Shown here: piece by piece, positions 29,301-59,912 of the stretch
Numbering within the stretch: the stretch's first letter is position 1
Layout of the letters: each line of letters starts with the position of its first letter
Virus record (IMG/VR): IMGVR_UViG_3300023179_000013
Location: 64,001 to 128,000 of that record
DNA length: 64,000 nucleotides
From: a virus
Direction: 5' to 3' (one strand)
Made by a program: the position numbers and the translations under genes
Notes under the pieces: generated by a model
What the model saw: the letters and a program-made list of their open reading frames with translations, nothing else
Told to the model about the DNA's origin: nothing
Database searches by the model: none

Positions 29301-29609
29301 ATGGCTACTAGATACGATAGTAAAACTACATTAGTTACCCCACAAGGTAAGCCTTACTATAAAAGTAAACAATATCCTAATATTCCTTTATCTGAGGATG
29401 ATGTTTATGTAATAACTAATATAGGAGATAGACTTGATCTTTTAGCTTATTCTTATTATGGTGATGTAGAAATGTGGTGGGTAATATCAGCCGCTAATAA
29501 CAATGTAACTAAAGGTTCTATGTTTCCTATCCCAGGTACTCAATTAAGGATACCAACAAATTTAGGTAATGTTTTAAATCTATTTGATCAATTTAATAAA
29601 GCTAGATAA
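29301..29609 (+). CDS. Baseplate wedge LysM-like protein (gp53/tail X-like)
   Basis: GDRLDLLAYSYYGD..MWWVI..AN...GTQLRIP. Confidence 0.85.
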   Translation: MATRYDSKTTLVTPQGKPYYKSKQYPNIPLSEDDVYVITNIGDRLDLLAYSYYGDVEMWWVISAANNNVTKGSMFPIPGTQLRIPTNLGNVLNLFDQFNKAR

Positions 29610-29613
29610 TGTT

Positions 29614-32600
29614 ATGTCAATATTTAAAGATTCATTCAATCTATCCATTCAAGACCAGATTAGTCTTCGTCAAAAGGCGTTAACTAATCGTACCTCTAAA
29701 AATCTTACTTATTACAATTCACGCAATGCTTGGATAAGGTTATCTTCTAGTGTGAATATATATAAAGGAAGTGGTGATATTGAAGATGAAAATAATTATA
29801 CAAACGATTTAGCAAAAAAATATATTCTACAAGGAGGAATATTAAATGAATCTATAAGTGGTGAAGGACAACTGCGTGAAGGAATAGGTGATTTTTCTAA
29901 AGCATATAGTACAAATACTTCTGATGGAAGATTTTATCGTTTAGGTATTCGCCCAATGCCTGGTATTATTGATGTTGACATTAAATCAAAAGGAGCATAT
30001 GGCTCCTTAAGAGAAGCAACAATTAAATTCCAGTGTTGGGATATTAAACAATTAGAAGATTTAGAGTTACTCTATATGCGCCCTGGATATAGTTTATTAT
30101 TAGAATGGGGATGGTCTCCATATCTAGATAATAAAGAGGGATTAAACACCACAGTACAGTACGGCGATATTATAAATAGTAAACCAACAAAAGAATTATT
30201 ATTTAAACAACAATACGCTAAAGCTACAGACGGAAAGTATAAAGAAGATGGAAAAGTTGTTGAAATAAAAGGATATGAAGGTAATTATGATTCAATGTAT
30301 GGTTTTATTAAAAACTACAGTTGGAAAGCTAGACCAGATGGAGGATATGATTGCCAAACTAATATTATATCAATGGGGGAAATTATTGAATCTTTAAAAG
30401 TAAACTACTCTCCTTTTGATAATATAAGTAAAATTACATCAGTAGGATTATTATCTCCCAATTTACAATTACCTGGTGAAGTTGTACCTGATATATCAAA
30501 AATGAACCTATCCAGCTCTTATGCTCAAAATATATTAGCTGGTCTTTTTGAAGAAATGTATAAGGTTACAAGACAAATTGGAAGTGAAACTAGTGATGTT
30601 GGTGAGCATTTTCTTTTGTATGACAAACAATATAAAAATTATTATGATGTTTTTCATAAAACAATTAATATAAGATCATCAGCAGAAGACCAAACTGGAG
30701 GGGAAGACATAGGTAAAAACGATGAACAAATATATGTAACTTTAGAAGGATTAACAAGATTAATTAATAACTATGTTTTATTAAAAGATCAAAAAGCTGA
30801 TTTACCTTTTGCTGGTTTATCCGTATTTGAAGGTGATGCTGCTGATTCTAATGCAATCACTGGAAAAGGGTATTTGTTAGGTTTAGCTCATCCTCTTCAA
30901 TTATCTATAGATCCTACTGTTTGTTTAATAAAAAACAAATTATGGTCAGGAGGAATAAAATTTAATGCCCAACCTAATGTCCCTCCTGATACAGGAAGTG
31001 TTGTATTAAAATATGGAAACGGAAACTACGACCCTTCAACTCCAGATGGAGAAAAATTTTGGACTGATTTAGTAACAAAACTTATAGCAGCTGATGGTTC
31101 AGATGATGAAAAAATAAATAATGATCTTATACAATATGTTCAAAAACATGTTGGAAGAGAACCCAATGCTGCTATTGAAGAACTTAAAGAAATCCAAAGA
31201 AATTTTTTACTTATTCAAAATGGTACTGCTGTAGATAGCAAAAAACAACTATTTAATCCAATAGCAGATAAAAAGGGTCATAAGATATCGGAATATTATA
31301 GTTTTTATGATTTGTTAGATGAAGGACTAAATGAAGAACAAATAAACAAAGCTCTTACTTTTAACAATGGAAATGAAAGTGTAAATTACAGTAATTTACA
31401 AGAGCGTGCTAAGGCTGCTGTACAGGCACAAAAAATAGTCGATGCTGCTACTCAAAATCCAGAAGACATTGCTAATCAACAAATAGCAGAGGTTAAAAAA
31501 GATCTTGATGAAAAACAAGAAAGTCTTGAAAATCTTGCTTTTTTAGATAATTTAAAACGTCCATATTTTATTGATGATGGAGATTATAAAAAAGAATTAG
31601 GCATTATAGGTAACATATATGTTAATTTAGGTATGCTATATAACATGTGTGCTAGTTCTGATTTAGCTGCTCAAGACACAAAGGAAAAGAATGATATTGC
31701 TTTGTATGATTTTATGAAAAATGTTTTGAAAAAAATATCAACAGCTATTGGAGAAGTAAATAATTTTGAATTGTTTATAGACCCTAATACTAATCTTGCC
31801 AAGATTATAGATATCAACTATGTTGATAGAAATAATCCAAACACAGCATATAAAAATGCTTTTGAAATACAAGTTCAAAATACTAATTCTATTGTAAGAT
31901 CATATAATCTTGAATCCCAAATATTCCAGGACCAATCTACTATGATAGCAATTGGTGCCCAAGCTGGGGGAGGAGCATTAGCTGCTGATACTACAACATT
32001 AACCGCATATAATAAAAGAATTATAGATAGAATTATACCTAAAAAAACAGCCCCTTCTTCATCTAATAATAATGCACAAACCAAATTTAAAGAACTTTTT
32101 TCAGCATTAGATATTTTATTTACTTTTATAAATAGATTAAAATGGAATGATGATAAAGACTCTAATTTTGATTTAGATGAGAATAACAAATATAAAAATG
32201 CGTTAAAGGATATTATTAATTATTTTAAAACTATAGGTAAATCCAAAACTAAAAGTAAAGCAATTATTCCTACTAAATTAAGTTTAACAATGGATGGTAT
32301 AGGAGGAATAATAATTGGAAATATATTTAAAATACCAGATGAGGTATTACCTAGAGGGTATAAGGGAGGGGATGTTGGTGCCAGACTAGGGTATATAGTT
32401 ACAGAAATAGGTCATTCTATAAGCAATAATGATTGGACAACAAATCTAACTGCCCAAACTATTATATTAGAAGAAGATAATACTGGAATTAAAATTGACT
32501 ATGAAAATATAACTATTGCTCTACCAGTATATAAAGAAGTTACTTCTCCTGCTGAATCTAGCGGAACTGGAGGGACAGCTGAGACCAAATCTACCACTCC

Positions 32601-33219
32601 AACTCCAAGTGGTGTAGGAAACGGCTGCAAAGCTGTAGCACCAGATGTTTCTTCAATTAAAGATAGTGAATTAGATATTATTAAAGGATCATTTACCACC
32701 AACACAGGAACAGTAAATGAATTAGCAGTAGTAGATGGAAAACCAGTAGGAAAAGATGTAGCTAAAGCTATTATATTAATGAAAAGAGCGGCTGCTAAGG
32801 ATGGAGTTGATTTAAGAGTAAATAGTGGGTTCAGATCACCTTACACTACTATTGGTCCTAATGGTCCAATACAATCAACAAAAGGAACTTCAGTTTCTTC
32901 TACTTCTCAAGATACTTTATATAGTGCTTACCTTAAAAACGGTAAACCATTAACAGCTAAACCTGGAACATCTAATCATGGTAATGCTTTTGCATTTGAT
33001 CTAAATACAGGCTCAGTAACAGGAACTATTAAGTCTCCACTTAATAAAAAAGTATATCAGTGGTTAATAGATAATGCTCACAAGTACGGATTTGTAAGAT
33101 GGGTAGCAAAAGAAGAATGGCATTGGGAATATAGACCAGGCGAATACCAATATAATCAAAGAGTTCCAAGAGATAATAAATTATATGCTGGTATGAAAAC
33201 AGATAGCCCTTGTGGGTAA
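29614..33219 (+). CDS. Baseplate hub protein with a C-terminal M15 (VanY-like) peptidase domain
   Basis: N-terminal RPMPGI...YMRPGYSLLLEWGW; C-terminal SGFRS...PGTSNHG..AFDL...WL..NAHKYGF...EEWHWEY; start moved to the ATG at 29614. Confidence 0.75.
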   Translation: MSIFKDSFNLSIQDQISLRQKALTNRTSKNLTYYNSRNAWIRLSSSVNIYKGSGDIEDENNYTNDLAKKYILQGGILNESISGEGQLREGIGDFSKAYSTNTSDGRFYRLGIRPMPGIIDVDIKSKGAYGSLREATIKFQCWDIKQLEDLELLYMRPGYSLLLEWGWSPYLDNKEGLNTTVQYGDIINSKPTKELLFKQQYAKATDGKYKEDGKVVEIKGYEGNYDSMYGFIKNYSWKARPDGGYDCQTNIISMGEIIESLKVNYSPFDNISKITSVGLLSPNLQLPGEVVPDISKMNLSSSYAQNILAGLFEEMYKVTRQIGSETSDVGEHFLLYDKQYKNYYDVFHKTINIRSSAEDQTGGEDIGKNDEQIYVTLEGLTRLINNYVLLKDQKADLPFAGLSVFEGDAADSNAITGKGYLLGLAHPLQLSIDPTVCLIKNKLWSGGIKFNAQPNVPPDTGSVVLKYGNGNYDPSTPDGEKFWTDLVTKLIAADGSDDEKINNDLIQYVQKHVGREPNAAIEELKEIQRNFLLIQNGTAVDSKKQLFNPIADKKGHKISEYYSFYDLLDEGLNEEQINKALTFNNGNESVNYSNLQERAKAAVQAQKIVDAATQNPEDIANQQIAEVKKDLDEKQESLENLAFLDNLKRPYFIDDGDYKKELGIIGNIYVNLGMLYNMCASSDLAAQDTKEKNDIALYDFMKNVLKKISTAIGEVNNFELFIDPNTNLAKIIDINYVDRNNPNTAYKNAFEIQVQNTNSIVRSYNLESQIFQDQSTMIAIGAQAGGGALAADTTTLTAYNKRIIDRIIPKKTAPSSSNNNAQTKFKELFSALDILFTFINRLKWNDDKDSNFDLDENNKYKNALKDIINYFKTIGKSKTKSKAIIPTKLSLTMDGIGGIIIGNIFKIPDEVLPRGYKGGDVGARLGYIVTEIGHSISNNDWTTNLTAQTIILEEDNTGIKIDYENITIALPVYKEVTSPAESSGTGGTAETKSTTPTPSGVGNGCKAVAPDVSSIKDSELDIIKGSFTTNTGTVNELAVVDGKPVGKDVAKAIILMKRAAAKDGVDLRVNSGFRSPYTTIGPNGPIQSTKGTSVSSTSQDTLYSAYLKNGKPLTAKPGTSNHGNAFAFDLNTGSVTGTIKSPLNKKVYQWLIDNAHKYGFVRWVAKEEWHWEYRPGEYQYNQRVPRDNKLYAGMKTDSPCG

Positions 33220-33233
33220 TAAAATAAAACATT

Positions 33234-33773
33234 ATGGGATTTAGAGTACCAAAAAATCAAATCATTAAAAGCAAATATACCTCTGGTAAAGAGTATATGT
33301 TTGTTAGTACATATAGAGAATATCAAGGGTATTATTATGAAAGTAGTGGCAAATTATACGCCGGGGAAACATATGATTCAGCAGCGCCTGAATTAATAAG
33401 AATAAATTCAAATAATGTTAATCGTTTATTAACTAATCCTTTTACTTATGTTTATGGAAAAGTAGCTAAGAATAATACAATTAAATTTACCTCTCCAACA
33501 TTAGTCCCTTCAGTTGTTTTTAATCCAAACAACCAAACAACTCCATTTACTAATAGATATTTTACTAATAAAGTAAATGTTTCTCCTATTATTATTAAAG
33601 AAATAAGTAAAAGTACTTATGATAAGATTGTAACCGACCCTATATACAACACTGTAATGATAAAATGGAATAATGAAGGAAATAATGATATTGCTATAGC
33701 GGAAGCAGAAAAGAAAATGCCTGGAATAACTGCCTTTTTAAAAGAAGAAACAGGCGATTCTTTTGAAGGCTAA
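33234..33773 (+). CDS. Hypothetical protein (end of the tail module)
   Basis: 179-aa ORF; YTSGKEY...YQGYY. Confidence 0.65.
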   Translation: MGFRVPKNQIIKSKYTSGKEYMFVSTYREYQGYYYESSGKLYAGETYDSAAPELIRINSNNVNRLLTNPFTYVYGKVAKNNTIKFTSPTLVPSVVFNPNNQTTPFTNRYFTNKVNVSPIIIKEISKSTYDKIVTDPIYNTVMIKWNNEGNNDIAIAEAEKKMPGITAFLKEETGDSFEG

Positions 33774-33792
33774 ATTTTCTAACTTATATTTA
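33762..33792 (+). promoter_or_regulatory. Bacteroidota sigma70-type promoter candidate (TTTG-N19-TATATTTA)
   Basis: Same architecture at 35547, 38556, 39964, 47393, 50832, 53675, 55278 and 58069 (spacer 19-21); resembles the Bacteroidota -33 TTTG / -7 TAnnTTTG consensus. Confidence 0.65.
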
Positions 33793-33811
33793 AAGATAAA
33801 GGTTATGAAAT

Positions 33812-35116
33812 ATGTTTTATATAATAGAAAAACAAGATCAATTATCTAAACTAGGCCCGTTTGAAGATTGCTTCGTTAAATTCATCCCACACAACGACAA
33901 TTTCCATCCTAAACTTAGTCCGCTTAGCTTAATATACATTAGATCATTAAATGATCATAAGGGTTATATTTTGTGCTTAGACCACAATGAGTCATTTTCA
34001 TTAGATAAACAATCAGTTATTGATTGGCTTAATACTAACACAAACAAATTATGGGTGTTAGATAAGAAGGAAGCAATGTGTTGGTTTCCCAATGCTGATA
34101 AATTATATGATATTAATTTTATCGAACAACCCAACCTAACAGAAGCACTAAATATACCAGCTATTACGTTTTACTATAGCAAACACACTAATTATCCAAC
34201 TGTAAATCGACTGATTCCTATTAGTAAACACTACGAAGAATGCGAGAACGTGTTTGATGTAGTACTACCTATAATCCAAAAATACCGAGCAAATAACGTT
34301 GCTTATGCGTTTAATAACGGCCCACTTACGCGCGTGTTTCACGAGATTGAATCGCAAGGTATTAAAGTAGATAAGCAATGTTTTATCGATTGCTACGGCA
34401 ATGATTTAAAATACCCTGAATTTAATTTGGCTAAAGGTAAAATATATAGCCAATACAACTTATATACTACTACAGGTCGTCCGTCCAACACCTATAACAG
34501 CATTAATTTTGCTGCACTGAATAAAAACAATGGTGAGCGAATGTGCTATAGACCACAAAATACCAAATTTATTGAATTTGATATTCAGGGATATCACCCA
34601 CGATTAATTGGTGAAATGATTGACTTTAATTTCCCAAGTGATAGAAATTCATATGAATATTTAGGTGAATTATTAGGTGTAAGCCAACAAGAGGCCAAAG
34701 AATTGACATTCAAACAGTTGTATGGTGGTGTGTGGGCTGAATATAAAGACCAACCATTCTTTAGAGATGTAGCAAAATACGTTGATGAATTGTGGGATGA
34801 ATTTCAATACCAGGGGTATGTTAAAACACAAAATCGTTGCTTTAATCGCTCTGAATTACCAGATATGACGCCGGCTAAGTTGCTGAATTACGTCATCCAA
34901 AGCTGTGAGACATCAACAAACGTTATGTTAATTAATGCAATATTGAACATATTAAAAAATAAACAAACCAAATTAGTGTTGTACACTTATGATGCATTTC
35001 TATTTGATTGTGCTAAAGAAGATGGCAACGAATTATTAACCGAAATCCAAAACATTATATACTATCCCGTTAATATTAAACAGGGTAATACATATCATGG
35101 CTTGAAAAAAATCTAA
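33812..35116 (+). CDS. Small family-A DNA polymerase-like protein (divergent)
   Basis: TTGRPSN; motif A EFDIQGYHPR; motif B AKELTFKQLYG; LLNYVIQS; motif C YTYDAFLFD. Confidence 0.8.
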   Translation: MFYIIEKQDQLSKLGPFEDCFVKFIPHNDNFHPKLSPLSLIYIRSLNDHKGYILCLDHNESFSLDKQSVIDWLNTNTNKLWVLDKKEAMCWFPNADKLYDINFIEQPNLTEALNIPAITFYYSKHTNYPTVNRLIPISKHYEECENVFDVVLPIIQKYRANNVAYAFNNGPLTRVFHEIESQGIKVDKQCFIDCYGNDLKYPEFNLAKGKIYSQYNLYTTTGRPSNTYNSINFAALNKNNGERMCYRPQNTKFIEFDIQGYHPRLIGEMIDFNFPSDRNSYEYLGELLGVSQQEAKELTFKQLYGGVWAEYKDQPFFRDVAKYVDELWDEFQYQGYVKTQNRCFNRSELPDMTPAKLLNYVIQSCETSTNVMLINAILNILKNKQTKLVLYTYDAFLFDCAKEDGNELLTEIQNIIYYPVNIKQGNTYHGLKKI

Positions 35117-35121
35117 TATTT

Positions 35122-35544
35122 ATGGCGGCACAACTAAATGACTTTTTGGACTTGAACAAACTATTCTGCACCTTTACTTCTCCTGCGGACCTAGATGAAA
35201 CTGTAGCAACGATTAATCGCAAGTATGCAGTGTTATTTAACAAAATATTCATCCTTGAATCACCCCAAAGCGATGAATTAATGTGTACTTATAACATTGA
35301 TACAGGAAATATGGCTTCATCTCCAATGTCTAATACAATATTACTCCACCGCAAAAAGGAAAGTAACACATTATACACCATTAATGCACTTAACACATTA
35401 ATTATGTCATTGAATGGTGGTATATTAGATAAAAATTTCATTATTAATTGGCAGGACTATAAAAATAGCATATTATTAACCAATGGTCCGGATTTACGTA
35501 AATTAGATACGTCTATCCACAAGATTATTGATTTTAATAAGTAA
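35122..35544 (+). CDS. Hypothetical protein in the replication cluster
   Basis: 140-aa ORF between the PolA-like gene and SSB. Confidence 0.7.
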   Translation: MAAQLNDFLDLNKLFCTFTSPADLDETVATINRKYAVLFNKIFILESPQSDELMCTYNIDTGNMASSPMSNTILLHRKKESNTLYTINALNTLIMSLNGGILDKNFIINWQDYKNSILLTNGPDLRKLDTSIHKIIDFNK

Positions 35545-35622
35545 GTTTTGAAACCATAAAGAAGAATCATAGATTCAATTAATATTGTGTTCATAGAACA
35601 CCTCATTTAAAAACAACATAAC

Positions 35623-36447
35623 ATGGACTTAAGTCTCATCAAGCAGAAGTTGTCCGCTTCTCAAAACAAAGGACAAAAACGTGAAAAAGTCGATTACAGT
35701 AAGATCTTCTGGAAACCAAAACCAGGTAAGTATCAGATCCGAATTCTCCCCTCAAAGTTCGACAAATCAAATCCATTCCGCGAAGTTTATTTTCACTATG
35801 GTTTTTCTAAAGGACCAATCTTAGCATTGACTAATTGGAACGAGAAAGACCCTATTGCTGAATTCGCAAAAAATCTCCGCAAATCTGCTGACAAAGAAGA
35901 TTGGCAATTAGCTAAAAAAATTGAACCAAAACTTCGTTACTTCGTTCCAGTATTGGTACGTGGTGAAGAAGCTCAAGGCGCTCGCCTATGGGAATTTGGT
36001 AAATTAATTTATGAGCAATTGTTAGGTATCGCTGCAGACGAAGATTATGGTGATTTCACAGACATCACTGATGGACGTGACTTTACAATCGACGCTGTTG
36101 AAGATGTAGTTGCTGGTAGAAAAGGTATCAAATGTAACATTCGTGTTAAGCCTAAAACATCTCCTATCTCTGAAGATGCAACAGTAGTAACTAAAGCATT
36201 GGAAGAGCAACCAGACATTCTTACTATCAACAAACACTATTCATTTGATGAATTGAAAGATTTATTAGATAAATGGTTAAATCCTGATAGCGAAGAAGAT
36301 ACTGATGCTCCAATCGCATCTAAAGATGAAGAAGAGGAAGATGAATTTCTTGCTGAACTAAACAAGCCAGTAGAACAAACCTATAAGCTTGATACTAGTG
36401 CAACTAAGACATCTAACGCAGACAAATTCGACGATTTATTTAATTAA
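35623..36447 (+). CDS. Single-stranded DNA-binding protein (gp32-like)
   Basis: FWKP...IRILP, DPIAE, LWEFG, DITDGRDF; acidic tail ending FDDLFN. Confidence 0.85.
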   Translation: MDLSLIKQKLSASQNKGQKREKVDYSKIFWKPKPGKYQIRILPSKFDKSNPFREVYFHYGFSKGPILALTNWNEKDPIAEFAKNLRKSADKEDWQLAKKIEPKLRYFVPVLVRGEEAQGARLWEFGKLIYEQLLGIAADEDYGDFTDITDGRDFTIDAVEDVVAGRKGIKCNIRVKPKTSPISEDATVVTKALEEQPDILTINKHYSFDELKDLLDKWLNPDSEEDTDAPIASKDEEEEDEFLAELNKPVEQTYKLDTSATKTSNADKFDDLFN

Positions 36448-36460
36448 TTAAAACTGATTT

Positions 36461-37567
36461 ATGGCGAAAGCAAAAAGCTCACTTAGTGAGGTTGTATCTG
36501 CCTCCTTGAAAGGTGGTTTCGATTTGGATAAGTTTAAGAAATCCAAATTCTTAGATCAATCCTCAAAATTTAAAAAACAGCGCTGGTTAACATTCTCACC
36601 AGCACTACGTGATGCGCTTTCAATTCCTGGTATTCCTCTGGGCCACGTGTTCGTGGCTCGAGGAGGATCAGATACAGGTAAAACTACTATGCTGATTGAA
36701 GCAGCAGTTGAAGCTCAAAAGCAAGGTATATTGCCTGTATTTATCATTACTGAAATGAAATGGGACTTCTCACATGCTCAGAAAATGGGATTCCAGTGTG
36801 AAGCAGTTCCTGATGATGCAACTGGAGAAGTAGTAGATTACAAAGGATTCTTCCTCTATGTAGATAGATCCTCTCTAAACACTATTGAAGATGTATCTCA
36901 TTTCATTGCTGATATTTTAAGCGAACAGAAAGATGGTAAATTACCTCATGATCTATTGTTCCTATGGGACTCAGTAGGTTCTATTCCATGCGAAATGAGC
37001 GTTAAACAAGGTAATAATAACCCTATGTGGAACGCAGGCGCTATGGCAACTCAATTTGGTAATTTCATTAACCAACAATTCCCACTATCACGTAAAGAAA
37101 GTTATCCATACACTAATACATTATTCATTATTAACAAAACAGGTGTACAACCAGCATTAACGCCTATGAGTCAACCTCGTATGACTAATAAAGGTGGTAA
37201 CTCAATGTACTGGGATGCTACAATTGTAGCTACATTTGGTAACGTTACTAATAGTGGTACTTCAAAAATTAGTGTACAACATAAGGGTAAGAAAGTAGAA
37301 TTTGCAAAACGTACTAAAATCGCTATCGATAAGATTCATGCTGATTATGGTATTGCTACTGCATCAACTGTACTTGTTACTCCTCACGGATTCATTCCTG
37401 ATACGCCTGAGGCAATTAAAGAGTACAAGAAAACCTATGCTCATGAATGGTTTAATGAAGCCATTGATGTATCTGACCTAGTACAGGTTGAAGATAATAG
37501 CGAATGGGAAGAAAGTAGTAAAATATCACCAACAATCGAAATCGATAACGAAGGAAATGAAGAATAA
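36461..37567 (+). CDS. uvsX: RecA/UvsX-like recombinase
   Basis: GIPLG, Walker A GGSDTGKT, ITEMKW, WDSVGS, KGG. Confidence 0.85.
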   Translation: MAKAKSSLSEVVSASLKGGFDLDKFKKSKFLDQSSKFKKQRWLTFSPALRDALSIPGIPLGHVFVARGGSDTGKTTMLIEAAVEAQKQGILPVFIITEMKWDFSHAQKMGFQCEAVPDDATGEVVDYKGFFLYVDRSSLNTIEDVSHFIADILSEQKDGKLPHDLLFLWDSVGSIPCEMSVKQGNNNPMWNAGAMATQFGNFINQQFPLSRKESYPYTNTLFIINKTGVQPALTPMSQPRMTNKGGNSMYWDATIVATFGNVTNSGTSKISVQHKGKKVEFAKRTKIAIDKIHADYGIATASTVLVTPHGFIPDTPEAIKEYKKTYAHEWFNEAIDVSDLVQVEDNSEWEESSKISPTIEIDNEGNEE

Positions 37568-38582
37568 ATATGCGGACATGTTGTCCAAAGTCAATAATGA
37601 TCAGCGTGGAGTTTCTGACTCCATTCTGATTATTGATGGTTTAAATACCTTTCTTAGATCATTTACTATGATCAACCATATAAATCCAGACGGCCACCAC
37701 ATAGGTGGCCTAACTGGATTTTTAAAATCAGTTGGGTATGCTATCAAAATGATAGAACCAACCAAAGTAATTATAGTATTTGATGGAGCTGGAGGATCTA
37801 ACGCCAAACGAAATTTATATCCTGAATATAAAGCAAACAGAAATAAATCTCGAATGACTAATTACTCTATCTTTAGCTCTAAAGATGAAGAGAACGAGTC
37901 TATCAATAACCAGATGGCAAGATTGATTCAGTACCTTCAATGCCTACCAGTTACAATGATTGTAGTAGATGGAATTGAAGCAGATGATACAATTGGCTAT
38001 TTAGTAGGTAAATTTGAAAAATACCCTTCAACTAAAGAAGTAACAATATTATCAGCCGATAAAGATTTCCTTCAATTAGTAAGTAATAAGGTTCAAGTAT
38101 ATTCTCCAACCAAAAAGAAAATATACAAACCAAAAGACGTATTAGATGAATTTAATGTTAGTAGCTACAATTTCGTTAACTATAAAATATTAATGGGAGA
38201 CAATTCAGATAACCTACCTGGTATTGATGGTTTAGGACCTAAAAAGGTAATTAAAATGTTTCCTGAATTAGCTAGCGACACACCAACAACATTAAATGAA
38301 ATGTTAGAAAAAGCAAACAATAAAATAGGTGAACATGATTTGTATGCTCGTATAGTTGAAAGAAAACATCAATTAGAAATTAATAGTAAACTGATGAATT
38401 TGCAGACTATGCCTATATCACCTGAGAATATAGAAATAATACAACGTAGTTTTAATTTGCCTTATGAATTGAATGCTCATGCATTTATGACTATGTATGT
38501 AGCTGATCGCCTTGGAGAAAGTATACCAAATACTCCTAATTGGCTTAATCAAGTATTTGGTCCTTTAAATTCCTTTAAGTAA
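37557..38582 (+). CDS. 5'-3' exonuclease/RNase H (FEN-like)
   Basis: IIDGLN, VFDG, YPEYKANR, EADD, SADKDFLQL, GDNSDNLPG..GLGPK; start moved to the ATG at 37557. Confidence 0.92.
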   Translation: MKNKYADMLSKVNNDQRGVSDSILIIDGLNTFLRSFTMINHINPDGHHIGGLTGFLKSVGYAIKMIEPTKVIIVFDGAGGSNAKRNLYPEYKANRNKSRMTNYSIFSSKDEENESINNQMARLIQYLQCLPVTMIVVDGIEADDTIGYLVGKFEKYPSTKEVTILSADKDFLQLVSNKVQVYSPTKKKIYKPKDVLDEFNVSSYNFVNYKILMGDNSDNLPGIDGLGPKKVIKMFPELASDTPTTLNEMLEKANNKIGEHDLYARIVERKHQLEINSKLMNLQTMPISPENIEIIQRSFNLPYELNAHAFMTMYVADRLGESIPNTPNWLNQVFGPLNSFK

Positions 38583-38598
38583 ATTTATAAAATAAGTT

Positions 38599-39981
38599 AT
38601 GACAACATTAAGTAAATTAAATCAATACGGAAACGCGTTTCAAGTTAAAGTACTAGGAGCACTATTAACACAACGTGAGTTCCTTCTCAACATAGCAGAT
38701 TCATTAGACCCAGAATACTTTGAATCCAGTGCTCATAAATGGACAGTAGAATACGTTCAAAAATACTTCCAACAATATCACACTTATCCCACTATTGAAA
38801 CATTATCAATCGAAATTAAAAAAATTGAAAATGAGGTATTACGAATTTCTCTCACTGACTCACTTCGTGAAGCTTATAAAATGGCTGACGTTAGTGATTT
38901 GGAATGGGTTGAAAAAGAATTTAGCGATTTCTGTAAGAACCAGCAAATGAAAAAAGCCATTATGACCTCTGTTGATCTACTCAACATGGGAGATTATGAT
39001 GGTATCAGAGCATTGATTAACGATGCTATGAAAGCAGGTGAAGATAAAAACGTTGGTTTGGATTATGCAGTAGATATTGAAACACGATATCGCGATGATG
39101 ATAGAGGCGCTATTCCATTCCCTTGGAAAACATTCAACGACCTTACACAAGGTGGTTATGGTAAAGGCGATTTAGTACTACTATTCGGTAACCCAGGCGG
39201 TGGTAAATCATGGGGTGTTATGGCTATGGGTGCTTACGCAGCAGCATTAGGATATAATGTTATCCACTACACACTAGAACTATCTGAAGGGTACGTTGGT
39301 AAACGTTATGATGCAATATTTTCAGGTATTGATGTTGATAAACTAAATGAGCATCGTACAGATGTGGAAGAATCAATTGCTAAGGTTAAGGGTAAAATAA
39401 TGATTAAAGAATACGCACCTAAACGCGCGTCTTTAGATACGATAGAGGCCCATCTTCAGCAACTTGAACATCAGAATGAGTTTAAACCCGATTTGATTAT
39501 AATTGATTATTTGGACTTGCTACGCACTAAAGGTAGAAAGGAACGTAAGGATGAAATTGATGACGTTTACACTGATGCTAAAGGTTTAGCAAAACAGCTC
39601 ATGATTCCAATTGTATCACCATCACAAGCAAATAGAACAGGCGCTGATGAAGATATCTTACAAGCTAAAAACGCAGCAGGATCATACGATAAGATCATGA
39701 TTGGAGATATCATTGTATCATTAGCACGTGGACGTAAAGATAAAGTAAACGGAACAGGTAACTGGCACTTCATCAAAAACAGATATGGTGCTGATGGATT
39801 AACATTCAGCTCCAAAATTAATACCGCAAACGGATTTATAGATATATACGATCAACCTCTAGATGATGAAGAATTTGAAACTAAGAAGAACAATAAGAAA
39901 ACAAATGACTTCTCTGATGTAGGAGTAGAAGATAGATTTGTTCTTCGAAGTAAGTTTGCTAAATTTGAAGAGGAACAATAG
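38599..39981 (+). CDS. Replicative DnaB-like helicase (gp41-like)
   Basis: GNPGGGKS, TLELSE, IIIDYLDLL, SQANR, KNRYG. Confidence 0.92.
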   Translation: MTTLSKLNQYGNAFQVKVLGALLTQREFLLNIADSLDPEYFESSAHKWTVEYVQKYFQQYHTYPTIETLSIEIKKIENEVLRISLTDSLREAYKMADVSDLEWVEKEFSDFCKNQQMKKAIMTSVDLLNMGDYDGIRALINDAMKAGEDKNVGLDYAVDIETRYRDDDRGAIPFPWKTFNDLTQGGYGKGDLVLLFGNPGGGKSWGVMAMGAYAAALGYNVIHYTLELSEGYVGKRYDAIFSGIDVDKLNEHRTDVEESIAKVKGKIMIKEYAPKRASLDTIEAHLQQLEHQNEFKPDLIIIDYLDLLRTKGRKERKDEIDDVYTDAKGLAKQLMIPIVSPSQANRTGADEDILQAKNAAGSYDKIMIGDIIVSLARGRKDKVNGTGNWHFIKNRYGADGLTFSSKINTANGFIDIYDQPLDDEEFETKKNNKKTNDFSDVGVEDRFVLRSKFAKFEEEQ

Positions 39982-40016
39982 TATATACTATATTTATAAC
40001 TACACAAATAAAAGAT

Positions 40017-40283
40017 ATGTTAACAGTAAAAAGATACACTGCAACGTGGTGCCAACCATGTAAGCAACTTGCCCCTATATTTGAAGAATTGCAAAGAGAG
40101 ATAACAAATACTCATTTTGAAACAATTGACGTTGACATGGACAGAGAAGCAGCCATAGAAAAAGGAATATCTTCTGTTCCAACAGTTATATTAGAAAAAG
40201 ATGGAACACAAGTATACCGCTTTAGTGGTGTGTTACCTAAATCGGTTATAGCTGGTATCATTAAACAACATCTAAACAACTAA
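40017..40283 (+). CDS. trxA: Thioredoxin
   Basis: ATWCQPCK, SVPT. Confidence 0.93.
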   Translation: MLTVKRYTATWCQPCKQLAPIFEELQREITNTHFETIDVDMDREAAIEKGISSVPTVILEKDGTQVYRFSGVLPKSVIAGIIKQHLNN

Positions 40284-40298
40284 AAAATAGAACAAAAA

Positions 40299-42712
<2,414 letters not shown>

Positions 42713-42715: not shown

Positions 42716-43396
42716 ATGAAAAAAGGTTATGTTTTACTGGTTATTTTACTCCTAGCATTTACTAGTTGTAAGAAAGTTCTTGGTATTAGAGATGATCCAT
42801 ACCCATTTGAAAATGGTAAACGATCAAAATTAGCTATGCGCTATCCTCAAGACGCTAGAGGTTATTATCTAGTTCCAATTGATACAACAACTAATTCAAA
42901 TCGATTTGACATTTATGTTGAAGCAACTAAACTAATTCCATTCTACTGGTACAATGGAACATCAGTAATGAGTGTTAAATTTGATTGTAATTCATATTGG
43001 GTATTAGGAGCAGGACAAAATGACCTGGTAGTTAACATTCCATTATATAGCCCATTTACTAGCTTATATAGTAGCCCATACTTTAATACTCCACTTCCAG
43101 TAAAAGATACTACTGTAGTATTAAACCAATATAGAAACAGTATTGTGTCTGTTGTGCAGGAGTCAAGCATATATTTAAAAGAATATTTCCCTGGCAGCAT
43201 GTATCAACCAGCAGATGAATATCAGCCTGAAAGTGGGATGATGTGGGGTAAGCGTATTGTAGGTCCTATTCCTAGATATTTTAAGGGAGATACTATAACA
43301 GTATATTCTAAAATCTTTTGGGATGCCGGAAATTATACTTATACTCACCCTCAAGAGACAACTAAAATTGATAGCGTAAAAGTAATCTTTAAATAA
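42716..43396 (+). CDS. Putative lipoprotein
   Basis: Signal peptide II MKKGYVLLVILLLAFTS-C. Confidence 0.7.
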   Translation: MKKGYVLLVILLLAFTSCKKVLGIRDDPYPFENGKRSKLAMRYPQDARGYYLVPIDTTTNSNRFDIYVEATKLIPFYWYNGTSVMSVKFDCNSYWVLGAGQNDLVVNIPLYSPFTSLYSSPYFNTPLPVKDTTVVLNQYRNSIVSVVQESSIYLKEYFPGSMYQPADEYQPESGMMWGKRIVGPIPRYFKGDTITVYSKIFWDAGNYTYTHPQETTKIDSVKVIFK

Positions 43397-43992
43397 TGAA
43401 AAAACAATACATCACTAGAAAAGGTTCATTTGACTCTGGTCATAGAGTAATGAATGAACGAATGAAATGCTTTAACATTCATGGACATACTTACCTGTAT
43501 GAGCTTGAATTTGAATTTAATGAAATGGAAGAAATCGGTTATGCAATCGATTTTAAAGAAATTAAACGTGTAGGATGTCAGTGGATTGATGATATTCTAG
43601 ATCACGGTATGATTTTAAATCCACAAGACACTAAATTAATTGAAACTACTAAAGATTATGGTACTAAAATATGGTTAATGTCTTTAAGTGGTGAAGGACA
43701 ATATTGCAATCCATCAGTAGAAAATATTGCTAAAGAGGTATTCCTAGCAATGATGGTATTATTTCAACCATATAAGAATCTTAGAATTCATAAAGTAACT
43801 ATTTATGAAACACCAAATTGCTCCACAATATGTCTTAGAGAATCAATCTCAGATATTGAAGCAAATAACTGGATGAAAGTTAGATTCAATGAAGTAAATC
43901 AATATGCAACAGATAAAGGAGTAATTGAATATGACGACAGAAAAATATCAGATTCATCAACTGAGCAGATTAATTATCTCGAAAACAAATAA
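43396..43992 (+). CDS. queD: 6-carboxytetrahydropterin synthase
   Basis: FDSGHR..CFNIHGHTY, IDFKEIK, LDH, PSVENIA, YETP. Confidence 0.9.
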   Translation: MKKQYITRKGSFDSGHRVMNERMKCFNIHGHTYLYELEFEFNEMEEIGYAIDFKEIKRVGCQWIDDILDHGMILNPQDTKLIETTKDYGTKIWLMSLSGEGQYCNPSVENIAKEVFLAMMVLFQPYKNLRIHKVTIYETPNCSTICLRESISDIEANNWMKVRFNEVNQYATDKGVIEYDDRKISDSSTEQINYLENK

Positions 43993-44005
43993 TCTAAATT
44001 AATAT

Positions 44006-44791: not shown

Positions 44792-45059
44792 AATGTTATC
44801 GTTGTTTGATTATTTAGGCCAACCAGCCGGAAAAGAATTAGGAGCACAAGTTGCTGCCTATGCTAAAATTAGAAAAGCAAGTTATAGTTCACGTTACGTA
44901 ACTAATCCTAAATACAGTGGACCAGTATTGTTGTATACTAAAGAATTTCTTGATGAATGTTTTTTAATTAAAAAAATATTCACAGACAATACAGACTATA
45001 CTGAAATCAACACTCAGTTAGCAGAAGAAGCATTTAATAAAACAGAAAATATATTTTAA
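44781..45059 (+). CDS. Hypothetical protein
   Basis: 92-aa ORF overlapping both neighbours. Confidence 0.6.
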   Translation: MPNKMLSLFDYLGQPAGKELGAQVAAYAKIRKASYSSRYVTNPKYSGPVLLYTKEFLDECFLIKKIFTDNTDYTEINTQLAEEAFNKTENIF

Positions 45060-45907: not shown

Positions 45908-45926
45908 ACAAATATCCCTTATAGTT

Positions 45927-46169: not shown

Positions 46170-46184
46170 TAAGCCAACAAACTC

Positions 46185-46223: not shown

Positions 46224-46236
46224 AAATTACAAATTT

Positions 46237-48545: not shown

Positions 48546-48547
48546 TT

Positions 48548-50869: not shown

Positions 50870-53443
50870 ATGTATCAAGCAATTTACTACGATAGATCTA
50901 CTTACACTTATCATCTGCGTGATGATGAAAAAGGATGGCTTGACTTCAAGTACACTCCTGAATTATATCAGATTACACCTAATGGTCCTTTAAAGACATT
51001 AGATGATAAACGTGCTACTCCAACTGAAAAATATAATTGGAAAGATACCTCATTATACGAGCAAGACGTTGATAGATGTACTCGTGTACTGATTGATCTC
51101 TATAAGGACAGTGACGATACTGCCAAATATCAAAACATAGTATACTTCGATATTGAGTGTGAAATTGGTGGAACTCTAACTACTGAGTACATTAAAACAG
51201 CTCCTATGAAGATGACCTCAGTAGCTGTATACGATAATACAACTCAAAAGTATTACTGTTTAATCCTAGATGAAAAGAAACAGCTGAGCTATATAAATGA
51301 AAATAATAGGGAAATTAGACCATTCGATACTGAAGCTGAAATGCTAGCTGATTTCCTTAATCTATGGGAAGAGTTAGATCCAACTATCATCACAGGATGG
51401 AATAGTGGATTCTTCGATGTGCCTTACATGTACTATAGAATGTGTAATGTATTAGGCAAAGAACAAGCTGCTCGTCTATCACCACTTCGCAAACTAAACT
51501 TTACTGAATGGGATACTGCTCAACCAATTGAGCTAGCAGGTATTAATCATCTTGATTATATGTTGCTATTTAAAAAGTTCATTGTAAAGCAAGAACCATC
51601 CTATAAATTAGATGATATAGGAGAAAAATACGTTAAATTAAATAAGATAGAGTACGAGGGATCACTTGATAGATTATTTCAAACTGATATAAATAAATTC
51701 ATTCAATATAACTTACGAGACGTAGAAATTATACTTGAGTTAGAAAAGAAACTCAAATTCATTGATTTAACAGTTGCTATCTGTCATCTATGTCACGTAC
51801 CATATGAACAGATCTATTTATCAACTGTATTAAATGATGGAGCTATATTGACATATCTTAAACGTCAAGACATAGTATCACCAAATAAACCAACTACAAT
51901 CAACCCATCACTTAAAGAAGCTACTGGTGATGAATATGCTGGTGGGTACTTAAAAGAACCTACTCCTGGATTATATCAATGGGTTATTGACTTGGACTTT
52001 ACATCTCTATACCCTTCAATCATCCGTTCACTCAATATTGGTATTGAAACGTTAGTTGGTAGAATAGTTAATAGTGGTAAATACGATAACCAATGGACAT
52101 ATGCTGAACTAAAGCAAATGGATCCTGATGATGTAGCAGTTATTGAAAAATTAAATACTAATTTCACTACCTCCAGAACACAAGTATCAGTAGGTAAGTT
52201 AGTTCAAATGATTGAAAACAATAATTGGATTACCTCAGCATCAGGTGCAATATTCAGAACAGATAAATCATCAGTAGTATGTGATGTATTAACTGACTGG
52301 TTCAATAAGCGCGTTGAATATAAAAATAAAATGAAACAAGCTTATAAATCAGGTGATGCGGCTATGGGTGAATTTTACAACCGCAGACAACACGCTTATA
52401 AGATTAAACTAAACGACGTTTATGGCTGCTACGCAATCAACGGCTGGCGCTATACAGATGGACATAAGATCATTTCGTCTGCTATTACGCTTACTGGTCA
52501 ACGAGTTACTCAAGAATCAATTAAGTTTGTAAATAAATGGATGAATGATAAGCTAGGTACTGAAGATAAAGATTACGTTGTAACATCAGATACCGATTCA
52601 TTATTCATTCAAGTTAAGGATCTATTAACTGCTGATACAAATGATAAAGCAGCTGTAATTAAAAACATATTAGAGATTGCTACTGAAGTTCAAAAAGCAG
52701 CAAATGCATTTATTGGACAATTCGCTATTGAAGCATTTAATCTAAATGAGCGTGAGCATTACTTCGAATTAAAGCAAGAGGTAATTATTGAAAGGGGTTA
52801 TTTTGCTGGTAAACGTCGCTACGCAATGTTGATTGTAAATAAGGAAGGTGTTGACACTGAAGAGATGATTATGATGGGATTAGATCTAATGAAATCTAAT
52901 ATGCCTCCACTATATAAGAAATTCGGTCAAAATTTACTAACCGAAATCATGCGCGGTAAACCTAAAGCTGAAATCGATAAACAAATTATTGATTTTAAAG
53001 TATCGCTAGATCAATTACCTTGGGAAGACATTGCTAAACCAACTGGCGTTAAACAAATTAATTCATATATTGCTAAACGACCATCACCAGGTGAAATATT
53101 TAGTGAATTTAAATTAAAAGCCCCAATTAATACAAAATCAGCAGTATATTATAATGATTTACTTAAATTTAAAAAATTAGACAAGAAATATTCAAGATTC
53201 GTAGAAGGCGATAAGATGAAATATGTATCGTTGAAACCAAATCCCTATAACATAGATACACTTGGCTTTAGAGGTAATGGTGAAGATCCTGAATTTATAC
53301 TTGACTTTATAAACAAATATGTTGATAGAGAAGAAGCATTCAATTCAGTACTACTAAACAAACTAACAGGTGTATTTAATGACTTAGGATGGGATTTCCC
53401 AGTTTTAAACTCAAAAATTAACAAATTCTTTAAATTTATGTAG
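50870..53443 (+). CDS. Family B DNA polymerase (gp43-like)
   Basis: Exonuclease motifs DIE, GWN..FD, YN..D; polymerase motifs DFTSLYPSII, KIKLNDVYG, SDTDS, KRRY. Confidence 0.97.
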   Translation: MYQAIYYDRSTYTYHLRDDEKGWLDFKYTPELYQITPNGPLKTLDDKRATPTEKYNWKDTSLYEQDVDRCTRVLIDLYKDSDDTAKYQNIVYFDIECEIGGTLTTEYIKTAPMKMTSVAVYDNTTQKYYCLILDEKKQLSYINENNREIRPFDTEAEMLADFLNLWEELDPTIITGWNSGFFDVPYMYYRMCNVLGKEQAARLSPLRKLNFTEWDTAQPIELAGINHLDYMLLFKKFIVKQEPSYKLDDIGEKYVKLNKIEYEGSLDRLFQTDINKFIQYNLRDVEIILELEKKLKFIDLTVAICHLCHVPYEQIYLSTVLNDGAILTYLKRQDIVSPNKPTTINPSLKEATGDEYAGGYLKEPTPGLYQWVIDLDFTSLYPSIIRSLNIGIETLVGRIVNSGKYDNQWTYAELKQMDPDDVAVIEKLNTNFTTSRTQVSVGKLVQMIENNNWITSASGAIFRTDKSSVVCDVLTDWFNKRVEYKNKMKQAYKSGDAAMGEFYNRRQHAYKIKLNDVYGCYAINGWRYTDGHKIISSAITLTGQRVTQESIKFVNKWMNDKLGTEDKDYVVTSDTDSLFIQVKDLLTADTNDKAAVIKNILEIATEVQKAANAFIGQFAIEAFNLNEREHYFELKQEVIIERGYFAGKRRYAMLIVNKEGVDTEEMIMMGLDLMKSNMPPLYKKFGQNLLTEIMRGKPKAEIDKQIIDFKVSLDQLPWEDIAKPTGVKQINSYIAKRPSPGEIFSEFKLKAPINTKSAVYYNDLLKFKKLDKKYSRFVEGDKMKYVSLKPNPYNIDTLGFRGNGEDPEFILDFINKYVDREEAFNSVLLNKLTGVFNDLGWDFPVLNSKINKFFKFM

Positions 53444-53710: not shown

Positions 53711-54049
53711 ATGCATTTATTAAAAGGTTTCATATTCGGATTATTAGCTCAAATTATTACATTTCTTCAATTACAAGGTCAACTTAAAATTGATTGGATA
53801 AAAAATAATATGTGGTTTGGTATATTAATGGGATTACCAATATCCTTTCTATTCATGATGTCTGTTAAGAATTTCGTAGAAGCATTTGATGGACAAATAT
53901 GGCCATCACGACTAATTGGATTTGGAATAGGTGTAGTGACATTCACTGTTATGTCTCATTATATGTTTAGAGAACCACTAACACCTAAAACACTTATTTG
54001 TTTGGGCTTAGGAACCTTAATAGTTTTAATTCAAATACTCTGGAAATGA
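53711..54049 (+). CDS. Small multi-pass membrane protein
   Basis: About four hydrophobic segments. Confidence 0.75.
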   Translation: MHLLKGFIFGLLAQIITFLQLQGQLKIDWIKNNMWFGILMGLPISFLFMMSVKNFVEAFDGQIWPSRLIGFGIGVVTFTVMSHYMFREPLTPKTLICLGLGTLIVLIQILWK

Positions 54050-54771
54050 AAAAATTATATTTAGAAGACGTTATTGAAAAATATTACCTGAATGGTTTAG
54101 TTGAACGTGTTAAAATCGATGTAGTCGATAAAACACTAACAACTAAATTTATCTCTAATCAAAAAAATCTAGTAGGAACACTATGTGCTCCTAACATTGA
54201 AATTGATGATTGTGAGTTTGGAGTATATGACACTACTCAATTATTAAAATTGATTGGCATTACTGACCACTTCCTAACATTAGAGGTTGAAAAACAAGGT
54301 AAAATAGCATCAAAGTTACTCATTGCTGACAATGAATATAATCTAGAATATGCACTAGCAGATACAATGCTAACACCATCAGTACCCAGTATTGATGAAC
54401 CAGTATACCAATTAGTAGCTGATCTCAGCATGGATTTCGTTATTAAATTCCTCAAAGCAGGTAAAGCACTAGGTACCGAAGTGTTTGCTATTGAACAATC
54501 AACTGATGTTGATAATAATCCAGCAATTAAATTCACATTAGGTGGCACAGAAGGACACACAAATAAAATCAACTTCACAATCCAAGCAGCAGTATCCAGT
54601 GTACCAGGTTCAATTATCAAATTCCCTATTGCTGAATTTAGTGCAATATTAGCCGCAAATAAAGAATTTGAAAAAGGTACATTGAGTGTAAATGAAGACG
54701 GATTATTGAAAATTGAATTCAACAACAAAGAAGGTGTAAATTCTTGCTACTTGCTTGTCGGGAAGGAATAA
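54046..54771 (+). CDS. Sliding clamp (gp45-like)
   Basis: About 240 aa; FGVYDT..LL; C-terminal GLLKIEF....YLLV; lies near PolB and the clamp loader. Confidence 0.65.
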   Translation: MKKLYLEDVIEKYYLNGLVERVKIDVVDKTLTTKFISNQKNLVGTLCAPNIEIDDCEFGVYDTTQLLKLIGITDHFLTLEVEKQGKIASKLLIADNEYNLEYALADTMLTPSVPSIDEPVYQLVADLSMDFVIKFLKAGKALGTEVFAIEQSTDVDNNPAIKFTLGGTEGHTNKINFTIQAAVSSVPGSIIKFPIAEFSAILAANKEFEKGTLSVNEDGLLKIEFNNKEGVNSCYLLVGKE

Positions 54772-58103: not shown

Positions 58104-59024
58104 ATGAAAAAACATACACTCTGGATTGAAAAATATCGTAGCCAAACGCTAGAACAGTACATCGGAAATGATGCTGTTAAAGATCGCATCTCCAATTGTA
58201 TTGATAAAAACGATATTCCCCATTTTATCTTTAGCGGTACAGCAGGTACTGGTAAAACAACATTAGCTAAACTAATAGTTAATAACATTAAATGTGATTA
58301 CCTCTATCTTAACGCTAGTGATGAGAATGGTATTGACATGATTAGGGAAAAGGTAAAGGGATTCGCTTCATCAGCTACATTTAATCCAATTAAAGTAGTA
58401 ATATTGGACGAGGCTGATTTCTTGACTCAACCAGCACAAGCTGCACTTCGTAATATTATCGAAGAATATTCAATTAATACACGCTTTATCTTAACATGTA
58501 ATTATATTGAGCGTTTAATTGAACCGCTTACATCACGTTGTGAAATTCATATCTTAAAACCACCATCAATGCCTGATGTTGCAAGACATATTTGCACAAA
58601 TATTCTTGATGTTGAAGGTGTAGAATATGATTTGAAAAACGTAGCAATGTTAGTTAAAGAATATTATCCTGATATTCGCTCAGTAATCAAAAATCTACAA
58701 GCAGGAGTTAAAGATAATAAATATCAATGGATTGCTCTTAGCACTGATTGGCTATCTAAAGTAGTAGAAGTATTAAAATCTAGAGATAAAAAAGCATGGT
58801 ACACTATCAGACAAATTGTAGCTGATGCCCAAATAGATGATTTTCAAATAGCATATCGCTATATGTTTGATAATCTAGAAAAATATAGTCATGGACATGA
58901 TGCTGAAATATCAGTAGTATTGGATGATCATATCTGGAGAGCAGGTGTAGTACCTGATAAAGAAATTAATTTTGCAGCTGCAATAGCTAAAATATTAGAA
59001 CTAAATAAAAAACAAGTATTATGA
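58104..59024 (+). CDS. Clamp loader AAA+ subunit (RFC/gp44-like)
   Basis: WIEKYR, GTAGTGKT, NASDE, LDEADFL, FILTCNY, SRC. Confidence 0.95.
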   Translation: MKKHTLWIEKYRSQTLEQYIGNDAVKDRISNCIDKNDIPHFIFSGTAGTGKTTLAKLIVNNIKCDYLYLNASDENGIDMIREKVKGFASSATFNPIKVVILDEADFLTQPAQAALRNIIEEYSINTRFILTCNYIERLIEPLTSRCEIHILKPPSMPDVARHICTNILDVEGVEYDLKNVAMLVKEYYPDIRSVIKNLQAGVKDNKYQWIALSTDWLSKVVEVLKSRDKKAWYTIRQIVADAQIDDFQIAYRYMFDNLEKYSHGHDAEISVVLDDHIWRAGVVPDKEINFAAAIAKILELNKKQVL

Positions 59025-59257: not shown

Positions 59258-59529
59258 TGTTCAATTTATTTAAAAAATTATTTAAAATGTCAACTAAACA
59301 AGAACTAGAACAGCAACTTGCTGGTGCTATTGATGTAGCTCAACGTTTAAATGAAGAAATTAAAACATTAAGAACAGCTAATGAAACACTAGCAATTGAA
59401 AATGAATCATTAAAAAATGATTTCAATGCAGCTGCTGATAGAGTGAGATATTTAGATGGTCAAGTAAGAATGCTAGAAGCACAGCGCCAAGCTAAAAACC
59501 AATATTCAGATAACGATAGAAACTATTAA
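59257..59529 (+). CDS. Coiled-coil hypothetical protein
   Basis: Heptad pattern. Confidence 0.65.
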   Translation: MFNLFKKLFKMSTKQELEQQLAGAIDVAQRLNEEIKTLRTANETLAIENESLKNDFNAAADRVRYLDGQVRMLEAQRQAKNQYSDNDRNY

Positions 59530-59912
59530 TGCCTAATATCTTCGACCATATTAAAAATATTACCACGTCTAAGGGTCCATATCTAGGTGACGAGGGATGG
59601 AACAATTGGATGATCAATCGTTACCTAAGTATGGATCCCGACTATTGTGAAGTAGTTAATATAGTACAGAAGAATACTTGGCAAATGAAAGGAGAGTACT
59701 TATATAACCTATATAAGGACCTGATTCCCCAACAGTATAAGTTTCTAAAGTATATTAAAGCATCTAAAAAATCAAACTATGAAAAGGATGATATTAATGC
59801 TGTTAAACAATACTTTGAAATATCCGAAAAACAAGCCAAGGAATATATTGATATGCTCCCTGAAGAAGAATTGGAAACAATAAAACAACAAATAAATGGC
59901 GTTTGCAGTTAA
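59529..59912 (+). CDS. Clamp loader small subunit (gp62-like)
   Basis: WMINRYLSM...FLKYIK...YFEIS...AKEY. Confidence 0.65.
   Translation: MPNIFDHIKNITTSKGPYLGDEGWNNWMINRYLSMDPDYCEVVNIVQKNTWQMKGEYLYNLYKDLIPQQYKFLKYIKASKKSNYEKDDINAVKQYFEISEKQAKEYIDMLPEEELETIKQQINGVCS

Follow-up and report, generated by a model that had tools for sequence, protein, structure and literature searches.

A compact divPolA1-type DNA polymerase and its conserved small neighbour in a virus with its own primase: most likely an accessory polymerase

Introduction

The closest described relatives of the gene studied here are a group of phage family-A DNA polymerases (PolA) that Yutin, Tolstoy, Mutz, Wolf, Krupovic and Koonin named divPolA1 (Virol J 2024;21:200; PMC11348598; bioRxiv 10.1101/2024.04.26.591309). 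These proteins have a truncated thumb and an inactivated exonuclease, conserved replication genes lie downstream of them, and the same genomes also encode a regular polymerase; 14 such phages are listed, and gene 1 of phage immuto is a named member (PMC11348598). The regular polymerases have a neighbourhood that is less replication-like than that of divPolA1 itself, and a role as RNA polymerase was considered for a separate family, divPolA2 (PMC11348598). The paper mentions no steric gate or gate histidine, no loss of Arg754 or Glu883 and no 140-residue partner, nor, in connection with divPolA1, ribonucleotides, 7-deazaguanine or its genes, or a primase (PMC11348598). In this work we analyse the gene for a 434-residue protein in a 64,000-nucleotide stretch of viral DNA, hereafter the window, which spans positions 64,001 to 128,000 of the IMG/VR record IMGVR_UViG_3300023179_000013 (G000:C1:64001-128000). 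The record is complete, with 168,946 bp and direct terminal repeats.

An initial annotation of the window had described the protein as a minimal PolA with a substituted steric gate, and had proposed that it was repurposed as a primase, an RNA-synthesising enzyme or a gap-filling polymerase for modified DNA. T7-type RNA polymerases share the PolA fold. We confirm what that annotation observed in the sequence and find partial support for its interpretation; the reading as a primase or RNA-synthesising enzyme is not supported. The phage has an ordinary primase elsewhere in its genome, so the protein is most likely an accessory DNA polymerase and not a primase.

Results

Sequence and residue conservation

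The 434-residue protein is a member of the already published divPolA1 family. Gene 1 of the Flavobacterium phage immuto matches it at 35.5% identity over 98% of its length (tblastn, E 9e-73), carries the annotation 'DNA polymerase family A' and is followed by the same order of genes. Like the published members, the present gene has a truncated thumb and downstream replication genes, and it lies in a genome within the 155-190 kb range that also encodes a regular polymerase; this genome is not among the 14 phages of the paper.

A Pfam scan of the protein at E up to 0.1 returned DNA_pol_A only, below threshold (E 0.0075, 15.7 bits against a cut-off of 34.3), and gave no match to RNA_pol, Toprim, Zn-ribbon or AEP profiles. 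The immuto homologue reaches a summed 43.9 bits against DNA_pol_A (PF00476). No match was found in PHROGs, and phmmer with the single sequence against the PDB yielded nothing meaningful. When 1.84 billion cluster representatives were searched exhaustively, 1088 relatives were recovered at E up to 1e-3 (462 at E up to 1e-30), almost all of them 420-460 amino acids long; in IMG/VR, at least 587 loci encode relatives. The locus comparisons below cover the best 80 of these loci; residue comparisons use an alignment of 66 polymerase relatives (A1) and an alignment of homologues of the 140-residue neighbour (A2).

The A1 profile finds Klenow at E 5e-8, and the resulting alignment pairs D705 with D257, E710 with H262, R754 with Q292, K758 with K296, F762 with F300 and Y766 with Y304, as well as Q849 with Q363, H881 with Y393, D882 with D394, E883 with A395, R682 with R243 and the TGR-motif R668 with R223. 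Both catalytic aspartates (D257 and D394) and the K/F/YG of motif B are therefore kept, and the substitutions that the initial annotation had mapped by eye (Glu710 to His, Arg754 to Gln, HDE to YDA) are reproduced. Eight positions are identical throughout A1 (R223, P224, N232, D257, K296, Q363, E366 and D394), and H262, F300, Y304, R243, Y393 and D399 are at least 90% conserved, with Y304 in 64 of the 66 relatives. In Klenow, R668 and Q849 are the sensors of primer terminus and minor groove; that their counterparts R223 and Q363 are invariant points to primer extension on a duplex.

None of the canonical family-A motif residues E710, R754, H881 and E883 is kept in the present protein, and the position of His734 is also a tyrosine here; this tyrosine and the losses of Arg754 and Glu883 are unusual. 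These changes at E710, R754 and HDE are family-wide signatures and not a peculiarity of this gene. The sugar-gate position is histidine in 65/66 relatives, that of H881 is tyrosine in 64/66, and that of E883 is serine or alanine in 65/66 (alanine here). At the position of R754, tyrosine is found in 37/66 and arginine in only 4/66, with glutamine in the present protein.

A predicted fold of Pol I large-fragment type

An AlphaFold2 model of the protein, built on A1, has a predicted local distance difference test score (pLDDT) of 96.7 and a predicted template-modelling score (pTM) of 0.93. The top 50 Foldseek matches are without exception Pol I large fragments (Bst, Taq, M. smegmatis) or apicoplast PolA, with E of about 1e-15. 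VIA-align places model residues 1-432 on residues 300-876 of Bst Pol I (Z 25.8, 407 aligned, root-mean-square deviation 3.9), and a Pol I large-fragment superposition accounts for all 434 residues. Because the model superposes in this way, the first ~130 residues can be assigned to an exonuclease-like domain, which is vestigial in Bst and Taq too. The initial annotation had seen no clear exonuclease motifs, and no conserved D-x-E or Y-x3-D exonuclease pattern was found in the N-terminal domain of the 66 relatives, where the only well-conserved acidic columns (E6, E60, D84 and D100) were placed, tentatively and by eye, at non-catalytic sites. Between the IExxG motif and TGR there are 37 residues, and in the alignment Klenow is ~90 residues longer there; to judge from this comparison, the thumb is nearly lost.

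The protein shares with the Pol I large fragments of Bst and Taq the whole-chain fold, the catalytic aspartate pair, the O-helix K/F/Y and a 3'-5' exonuclease domain that, in the present protein, is apparently non-functional. A Pol I-type 5'-3' nuclease is also nearby, although as a separate gene. Unlike Bst and Taq, divPolA1 is ~150 residues shorter, has almost no thumb, shows E710 to His, R754 to Gln/Tyr and HDE to YD[SA], and, in the present protein, does not reach the Pfam DNA_pol_A threshold.

A separate primase in the same genome

The initial annotation had noted the absence of a DnaG/TOPRIM primase, which is correct for the window but not for the genome. A 313-residue primase, P0154, is encoded at G000:C1:31452-32393 (L003:1435-2376), ~32 kb upstream of the window start. 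It was located with a DnaG Zn-ribbon profile and has a CPFC...CWVC zinc ribbon and the Toprim motifs EGxxD and DPD. Its matches, phrog_47 'DNA primase' (E 1.7e-42) and Pfam DNAG_N (31.6 against a 26-bit cut-off), identify it as DnaG/gp61-type. Nothing else in the genome matches phrog_47, and a search of the whole genome for AEP Prim-Pol gave no match. The Toprim Pfam profiles PF13155, PF01751 and PF13662 had no match against the six-frame genome; these are false negatives, as they missed P0154. Just upstream of the primase gene lies an HNH-type homing-endonuclease-like open reading frame (L003:976-1407), and just downstream an exonuclease (L003:2373-3152).

The same primase family occurs in the related genomes G001 and G002 (both estimated to be at least 90% complete), in G004, in immuto and in the distant carriers Mel-JY01 and LR756508; a primase was found in all six complete or nearly complete divPolA1 relatives checked. 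The initial annotation had named a primase elsewhere as one half of the case against its own idea, and that half is what our search of the whole genome and of relatives found. The argument for divPolA1 as the primase fails because a DnaG/gp61-type primase is encoded elsewhere, both in this genome and in the relatives checked.

The conserved neighbour p140

The next open reading frame encodes a 140-residue protein, p140, which the initial annotation had put forward as a possible partner of the polymerase. Its linkage agrees with this: a p140 homologue lies directly after divPolA1 in 78 of the 80 loci, the remaining two ending too early to tell, and it usually overlaps the polymerase gene. Throughout the best 80 loci the order is divPolA1, p140, single-stranded DNA binding protein (SSB), UvsX, flap endonuclease (FEN) and DnaB. 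The gap between divPolA1 and p140 has a median of -20 nucleotides (overlapping in 45/78 loci, 0-30 nucleotides in 29/78, more than 100 in 4/78), so that the two genes overlap or lie within 30 nucleotides of each other in 74/78. From p140 to SSB the median is 68 nucleotides, with no overlaps, 0-30 nucleotides in 4/71 and more than 100 in 22/71. These figures take the earliest in-frame codon as the start, and the N-terminal extensions that result are themselves conserved.

In each of the 78 loci p140 is better conserved than the polymerase, with a median identity of 56% against 40%, and the homologues share the invariant core HRKK-x2-NTLYTINALN. A homologue of p140 is also present in the Microcystis phage Mel-JY01 (40% identity, E 7e-29), whose divPolA1 is only ~30% identical and whose genes are ordered ...RecA-FEN-helicase; we take the pair to be old for this reason. 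p140 is probably the partner of divPolA1, and may bind it.

The p140 model has a pLDDT of 88.4 and a ferredoxin-like N-terminal half. The protein has no match in Pfam or PHROGs, and its model found nothing in the PDB with Foldseek at E up to 0.001. A wide VIA search returned only generic ferredoxin-like, RRM or ACT-like matches over residues ~9-75 (best Z 6.0); feature and shape searches of the ESM Atlas gave only unnamed viral clusters, and BFVD only p140's own family. Prediction of a complex of divPolA1 (A1) with p140 (A2) scored 0.00, which is uninformative either way. We set fusion proteins aside as evidence: seven longer proteins contain p140, of which two are fusions of p140 with a C-terminal part of divPolA1 and one is a fusion with SSB, but all seven are singletons and so may be artefacts of assembly or gene calling.

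The N-terminal tail of p140 (window 35122-35150) is disordered, with a pLDDT below 50. It carries aromatic motifs, QLNDFLDL here and P-x-[IM]-[FY], MY..DF or [NH]-[MI]-[YF]..DF in relatives (A2 columns 1-40), and to the eye looks like a short linear docking motif. The idea that it binds the clamp was not supported, as immuto keeps such a tail without having a clamp loader, and the clamp profile was too weak for a survey.

Replication genes and other features of the window

The features of the replication module and of the regular replicase are collected in Table 1. The polymerase and p140 reading frames are present as first annotated, Pfam and PHROGs agree with the gene run proposed after them, and PHROGs matches place a PolB with clamp and loader, distinct from the present gene, in the second group. 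All long open reading frames of the window are on the + strand.

Table 1. Replication-related features of the window (positions are those of the window)
Feature	Position	Strand	Details
divPolA1-type family-A DNA polymerase	33812..35116	+	434 aa; apparently vestigial 3'-5' exonuclease-like domain ~1-130, thumb nearly absent, palm and fingers
divPolA1 palm/fingers residues	within 33812..35116	+	D257, K296/F300/Y304, Q363, D394; gate position H262
p140	35122..35544	+	140 aa, no known family; start codon 5 nt past polymerase stop; presumed divPolA1 partner
gp32-type single-stranded DNA binding protein	35623..36447	+	Pfam gp32 E 3.6e-13, phrog_1192
UvsX/RecA-type recombinase	36461..37567	+	Pfam RecA, phrog_97
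Pol I-type 5'-3' exonuclease / flap endonuclease	37488..38582	+	PF02739 E 4.5e-33, PF01367
DnaB-type replicative helicase	38599..39981	+	phrog_19 E 1.3e-76
Family-B DNA polymerase (T4-type PolB), presumed processive replicase	50870..53443	+	phrog_262 E 1.6e-164
Sliding clamp-like processivity factor	53998..54771	+	phrog_223 E 9.5e-7
Clamp loader large subunit	58104..59024	+	phrog_168 E 1.2e-76
Clamp loader small subunit	59529..59912	+	phrog_225 E 1.5e-18

The TTG start listed for the 5'-3' exonuclease overlaps uvsX, and the true start may be further downstream. A promoter and terminator scan over 33000-40400 found no convincing boundary within the replication module. The module is followed by a thioredoxin (40017-40283), a class II-like ribonucleotide reductase (RNR) with a B12-dependent RNR insertion domain (40299-42149), at whose position immuto has the class I NrdA/NrdF instead, and a DUF5522 protein (42121-42519). 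Genes for Hsp20 (54868-55275) and GroEL (55827-57455) lie between the clamp and clamp loader genes, in agreement with the observation of Yutin et al. that the regular polymerases of divPolA1 phages always adjoin chaperonins (PMC11348598). In the relatives G002 (G002:C1:93355-95419) and G008 (G008:C1:58577-60848), PolB is present as two separate open frames of ~590 and ~300-320 residues, which suggests a split or interrupted polymerase gene. The window also contains a giant 2621-residue open reading frame (6123-13988) and one of 1211 residues (29584-33219) with a C-terminal VanY D-Ala-D-Ala carboxypeptidase domain (Pfam E 3.2e-13). The latter presumably encodes a tail protein or a cell-wall hydrolase carried by the virion.

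Genes for DNA modification

A 7-deazaguanine cluster occupies 43396-49388 of the window, with QueD (43396-43992), a DpdA homologue (44006-44791), QueC (45059-45907), QueE (47446-48339) and FolE (48693-49388). The DpdA homologue is 33% identical to that of immuto (E 6e-43). BLAST found no homologue of immuto QueF or of the DpdN formyltransferase among the nine open reading frames at 42716-50831, so the final base may differ from the fdPreQ1 of immuto. QueC is present in eight of nine related records, the exception being a fragment estimated to be 46% complete. It is absent from Mel-JY01 and from the 484-kb phage LR756508, both of which encode a divPolA1 with the same gate histidine; p140 was confirmed in Mel-JY01 only. 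The association of divPolA1 with QueC is for this reason better read as shared ancestry within an immuto-like clade than as a functional requirement, and shared ancestry is what the co-occurrence looks like from the genomes compared.

Discussion

What we observe is the family membership, the fold, the conservation of catalytic and DNA-sensing residues, the linkage of the genes, a separate primase and a separate replicase. The enzymatic activity, the cellular role and the binding to p140 proposed in the following are what we infer from these observations. The explanation that we favour, and consider reasonably probable, is that divPolA1 is an accessory, primer-dependent, distributive, non-proofreading and error-prone polymerase that copies DNA into DNA and acts with p140 in lagging-strand gap filling and/or recombination synthesis. 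It would be a Pol I large fragment in miniature, in which the exonuclease-like N-terminal domain is dead, the thumb almost gone and the two-metal polymerase site left intact. Within a module of SSB, UvsX, flap nuclease and helicase it would serve as an accessory enzyme, being neither the main replicase nor the primase. It may fill gaps once the neighbouring Pol I-type 5'-3' exonuclease has removed primers, and/or extend recombination intermediates in UvsX-driven, recombination-dependent synthesis. The co-translated p140 would be its partner and may make up for the missing thumb.

The main replicase of immuto is a regular 778-residue PolA, and no clamp loader is present, whereas the present phage has PolB, clamp and loader. 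One type of replicase can therefore take the place of another with no change to the divPolA1 module or the primase, and this makes an accessory polymerase the most economical reading. An exchangeable main replicase beside a constant divPolA1 module is also what Yutin et al. describe (PMC11348598).

Several points weigh against this explanation. Arg754, which contacts the triphosphate, and Glu883 are lost family-wide, and His734 is replaced by tyrosine here, so the activity could be weak or chemically unusual. T4-type replisomes mature Okazaki fragments without a PolA, and the need for divPolA1 is not obvious. Furthermore, given the less replication-like neighbourhood of the regular polymerases, divPolA1 may have a more central part than the word 'accessory' implies.

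It is possible, though we think it improbable, that divPolA1 and p140 are obligate subunits of one polymerase. In this case p140 would contribute the thumb in trans, and the pair would act as a constant 'hand-off' enzyme in a modular replisome with a swappable main replicase of family A, B or C. The pair would then lengthen the products of the primase or complete Okazaki fragments irrespective of the replicase in place, and would do so with a histidine sugar gate and a triphosphate pocket that lacks Arg754. It is unlikely that the pair is itself the core replicase; p140 would then be a processivity subunit, as thioredoxin is for T7 gp5, and the 'regular' polymerase would serve another purpose. 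divPolA1 does head the conserved replication module, p140 is tightly coupled to it and extremely conserved, and the regular polymerases, which belong to family A, B or C depending on the phage, have chaperonin and nucleotide-metabolism genes as neighbours (PMC11348598). The setting resembles that of T7 gp5 and thioredoxin, with a PolA fold beside an SSB, a 5'-3' exonuclease, a hexameric helicase and a candidate small accessory protein. T7 gp5, however, is a proofreading enzyme and the only replicase of its phage, and its thumb is complete and bears a loop that binds thioredoxin; p140, the putative partner here, is unrelated to thioredoxin. Against the core-replicase reading, copying a 169-kb genome without proofreading would be costly, hardly any thumb is left, and a complete T4-type PolB is encoded here together with a clamp and its loader.

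The remaining rivals concern the chemistry of the enzyme. A polymerase specialised for 7-deazaguanine-modified DNA, either incorporating the base or copying a modified template, has a precedent in DpoZ, a PolA dedicated to a modified base. It would fit the window's FolE, QueD, QueE, QueC and DpdA homologue, the frequency of QueC in related records and the replacement of every G in immuto DNA by fdPreQ1 (10.1101/2023.04.13.536721). We nevertheless hold it to be quite unlikely: distant members with the same gate histidine do without QueC, whose co-occurrence may be mere shared ancestry, a search of a phage collection found no divPolA1 match in the fully modified phages phiST and CP220, and in the current model DpdA inserts 7-deazaguanines after replication (10.1101/2023.04.13.536721). 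The link to modified DNA that the initial annotation had proposed is weakened by the distant members. Very unlikely, in our judgement, is a catalytically weak or inert PolA remnant that acts as a DNA-binding scaffold of a replication or recombination complex. The loss of Arg754, Glu883 and Glu710, the truncated thumb and the apparently dead exonuclease would agree with it, but both metal-binding aspartates, K758, Y766, R668 and Q849 are kept in relatives down to ~30% identity, which fits selection for catalysis. A repurposed PolA that primes or makes RNA through its changed steric gate is highly improbable, even though Glu710 has become histidine, Arg754 is lost and the right-hand palm and fingers are of the type also found in T7-type single-subunit RNA polymerases and in divPolA2, the separate family for which RNA synthesis was considered. 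The change to histidine does not imply RNA synthesis, because this bulky residue serves as a steric gate in other polymerase families: in family D polymerases experiments have validated it as the gate (PolD H931, PMC7708050), and for Pol III alpha it has been proposed as such (H760, PMC8485763). Unlike T7-type RNA polymerases and divPolA2, the protein has no Pfam RNA_pol signal and no N-terminal promoter-binding domain, for which 434 residues leave no room; it keeps the primer-terminus and minor-groove sensors of DNA polymerases, and its nearest structures are DNA polymerases. A DnaG/gp61-type primase exists in this genome and in six of six complete or nearly complete relatives checked.

In summary, the primase idea that gave this gene its appeal fails, and the protein itself had been described before. 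New with respect to the published description are the conserved p140 neighbour as probable partner, the gate histidine with the loss of Arg754 and Glu883, and the scale of the family, with at least 587 loci and 1088 cluster representatives. Few natural PolA enzymes are as small as divPolA1, a family that environmental phages carry in abundance. At Glu710, Arg754 and His881-Glu883 it deviates from what is regarded as near-universal in PolA. Its activity, if worked out, would give insight into how replisomes tolerate swaps of the main polymerase, and might provide a compact polymerase for biotechnology.

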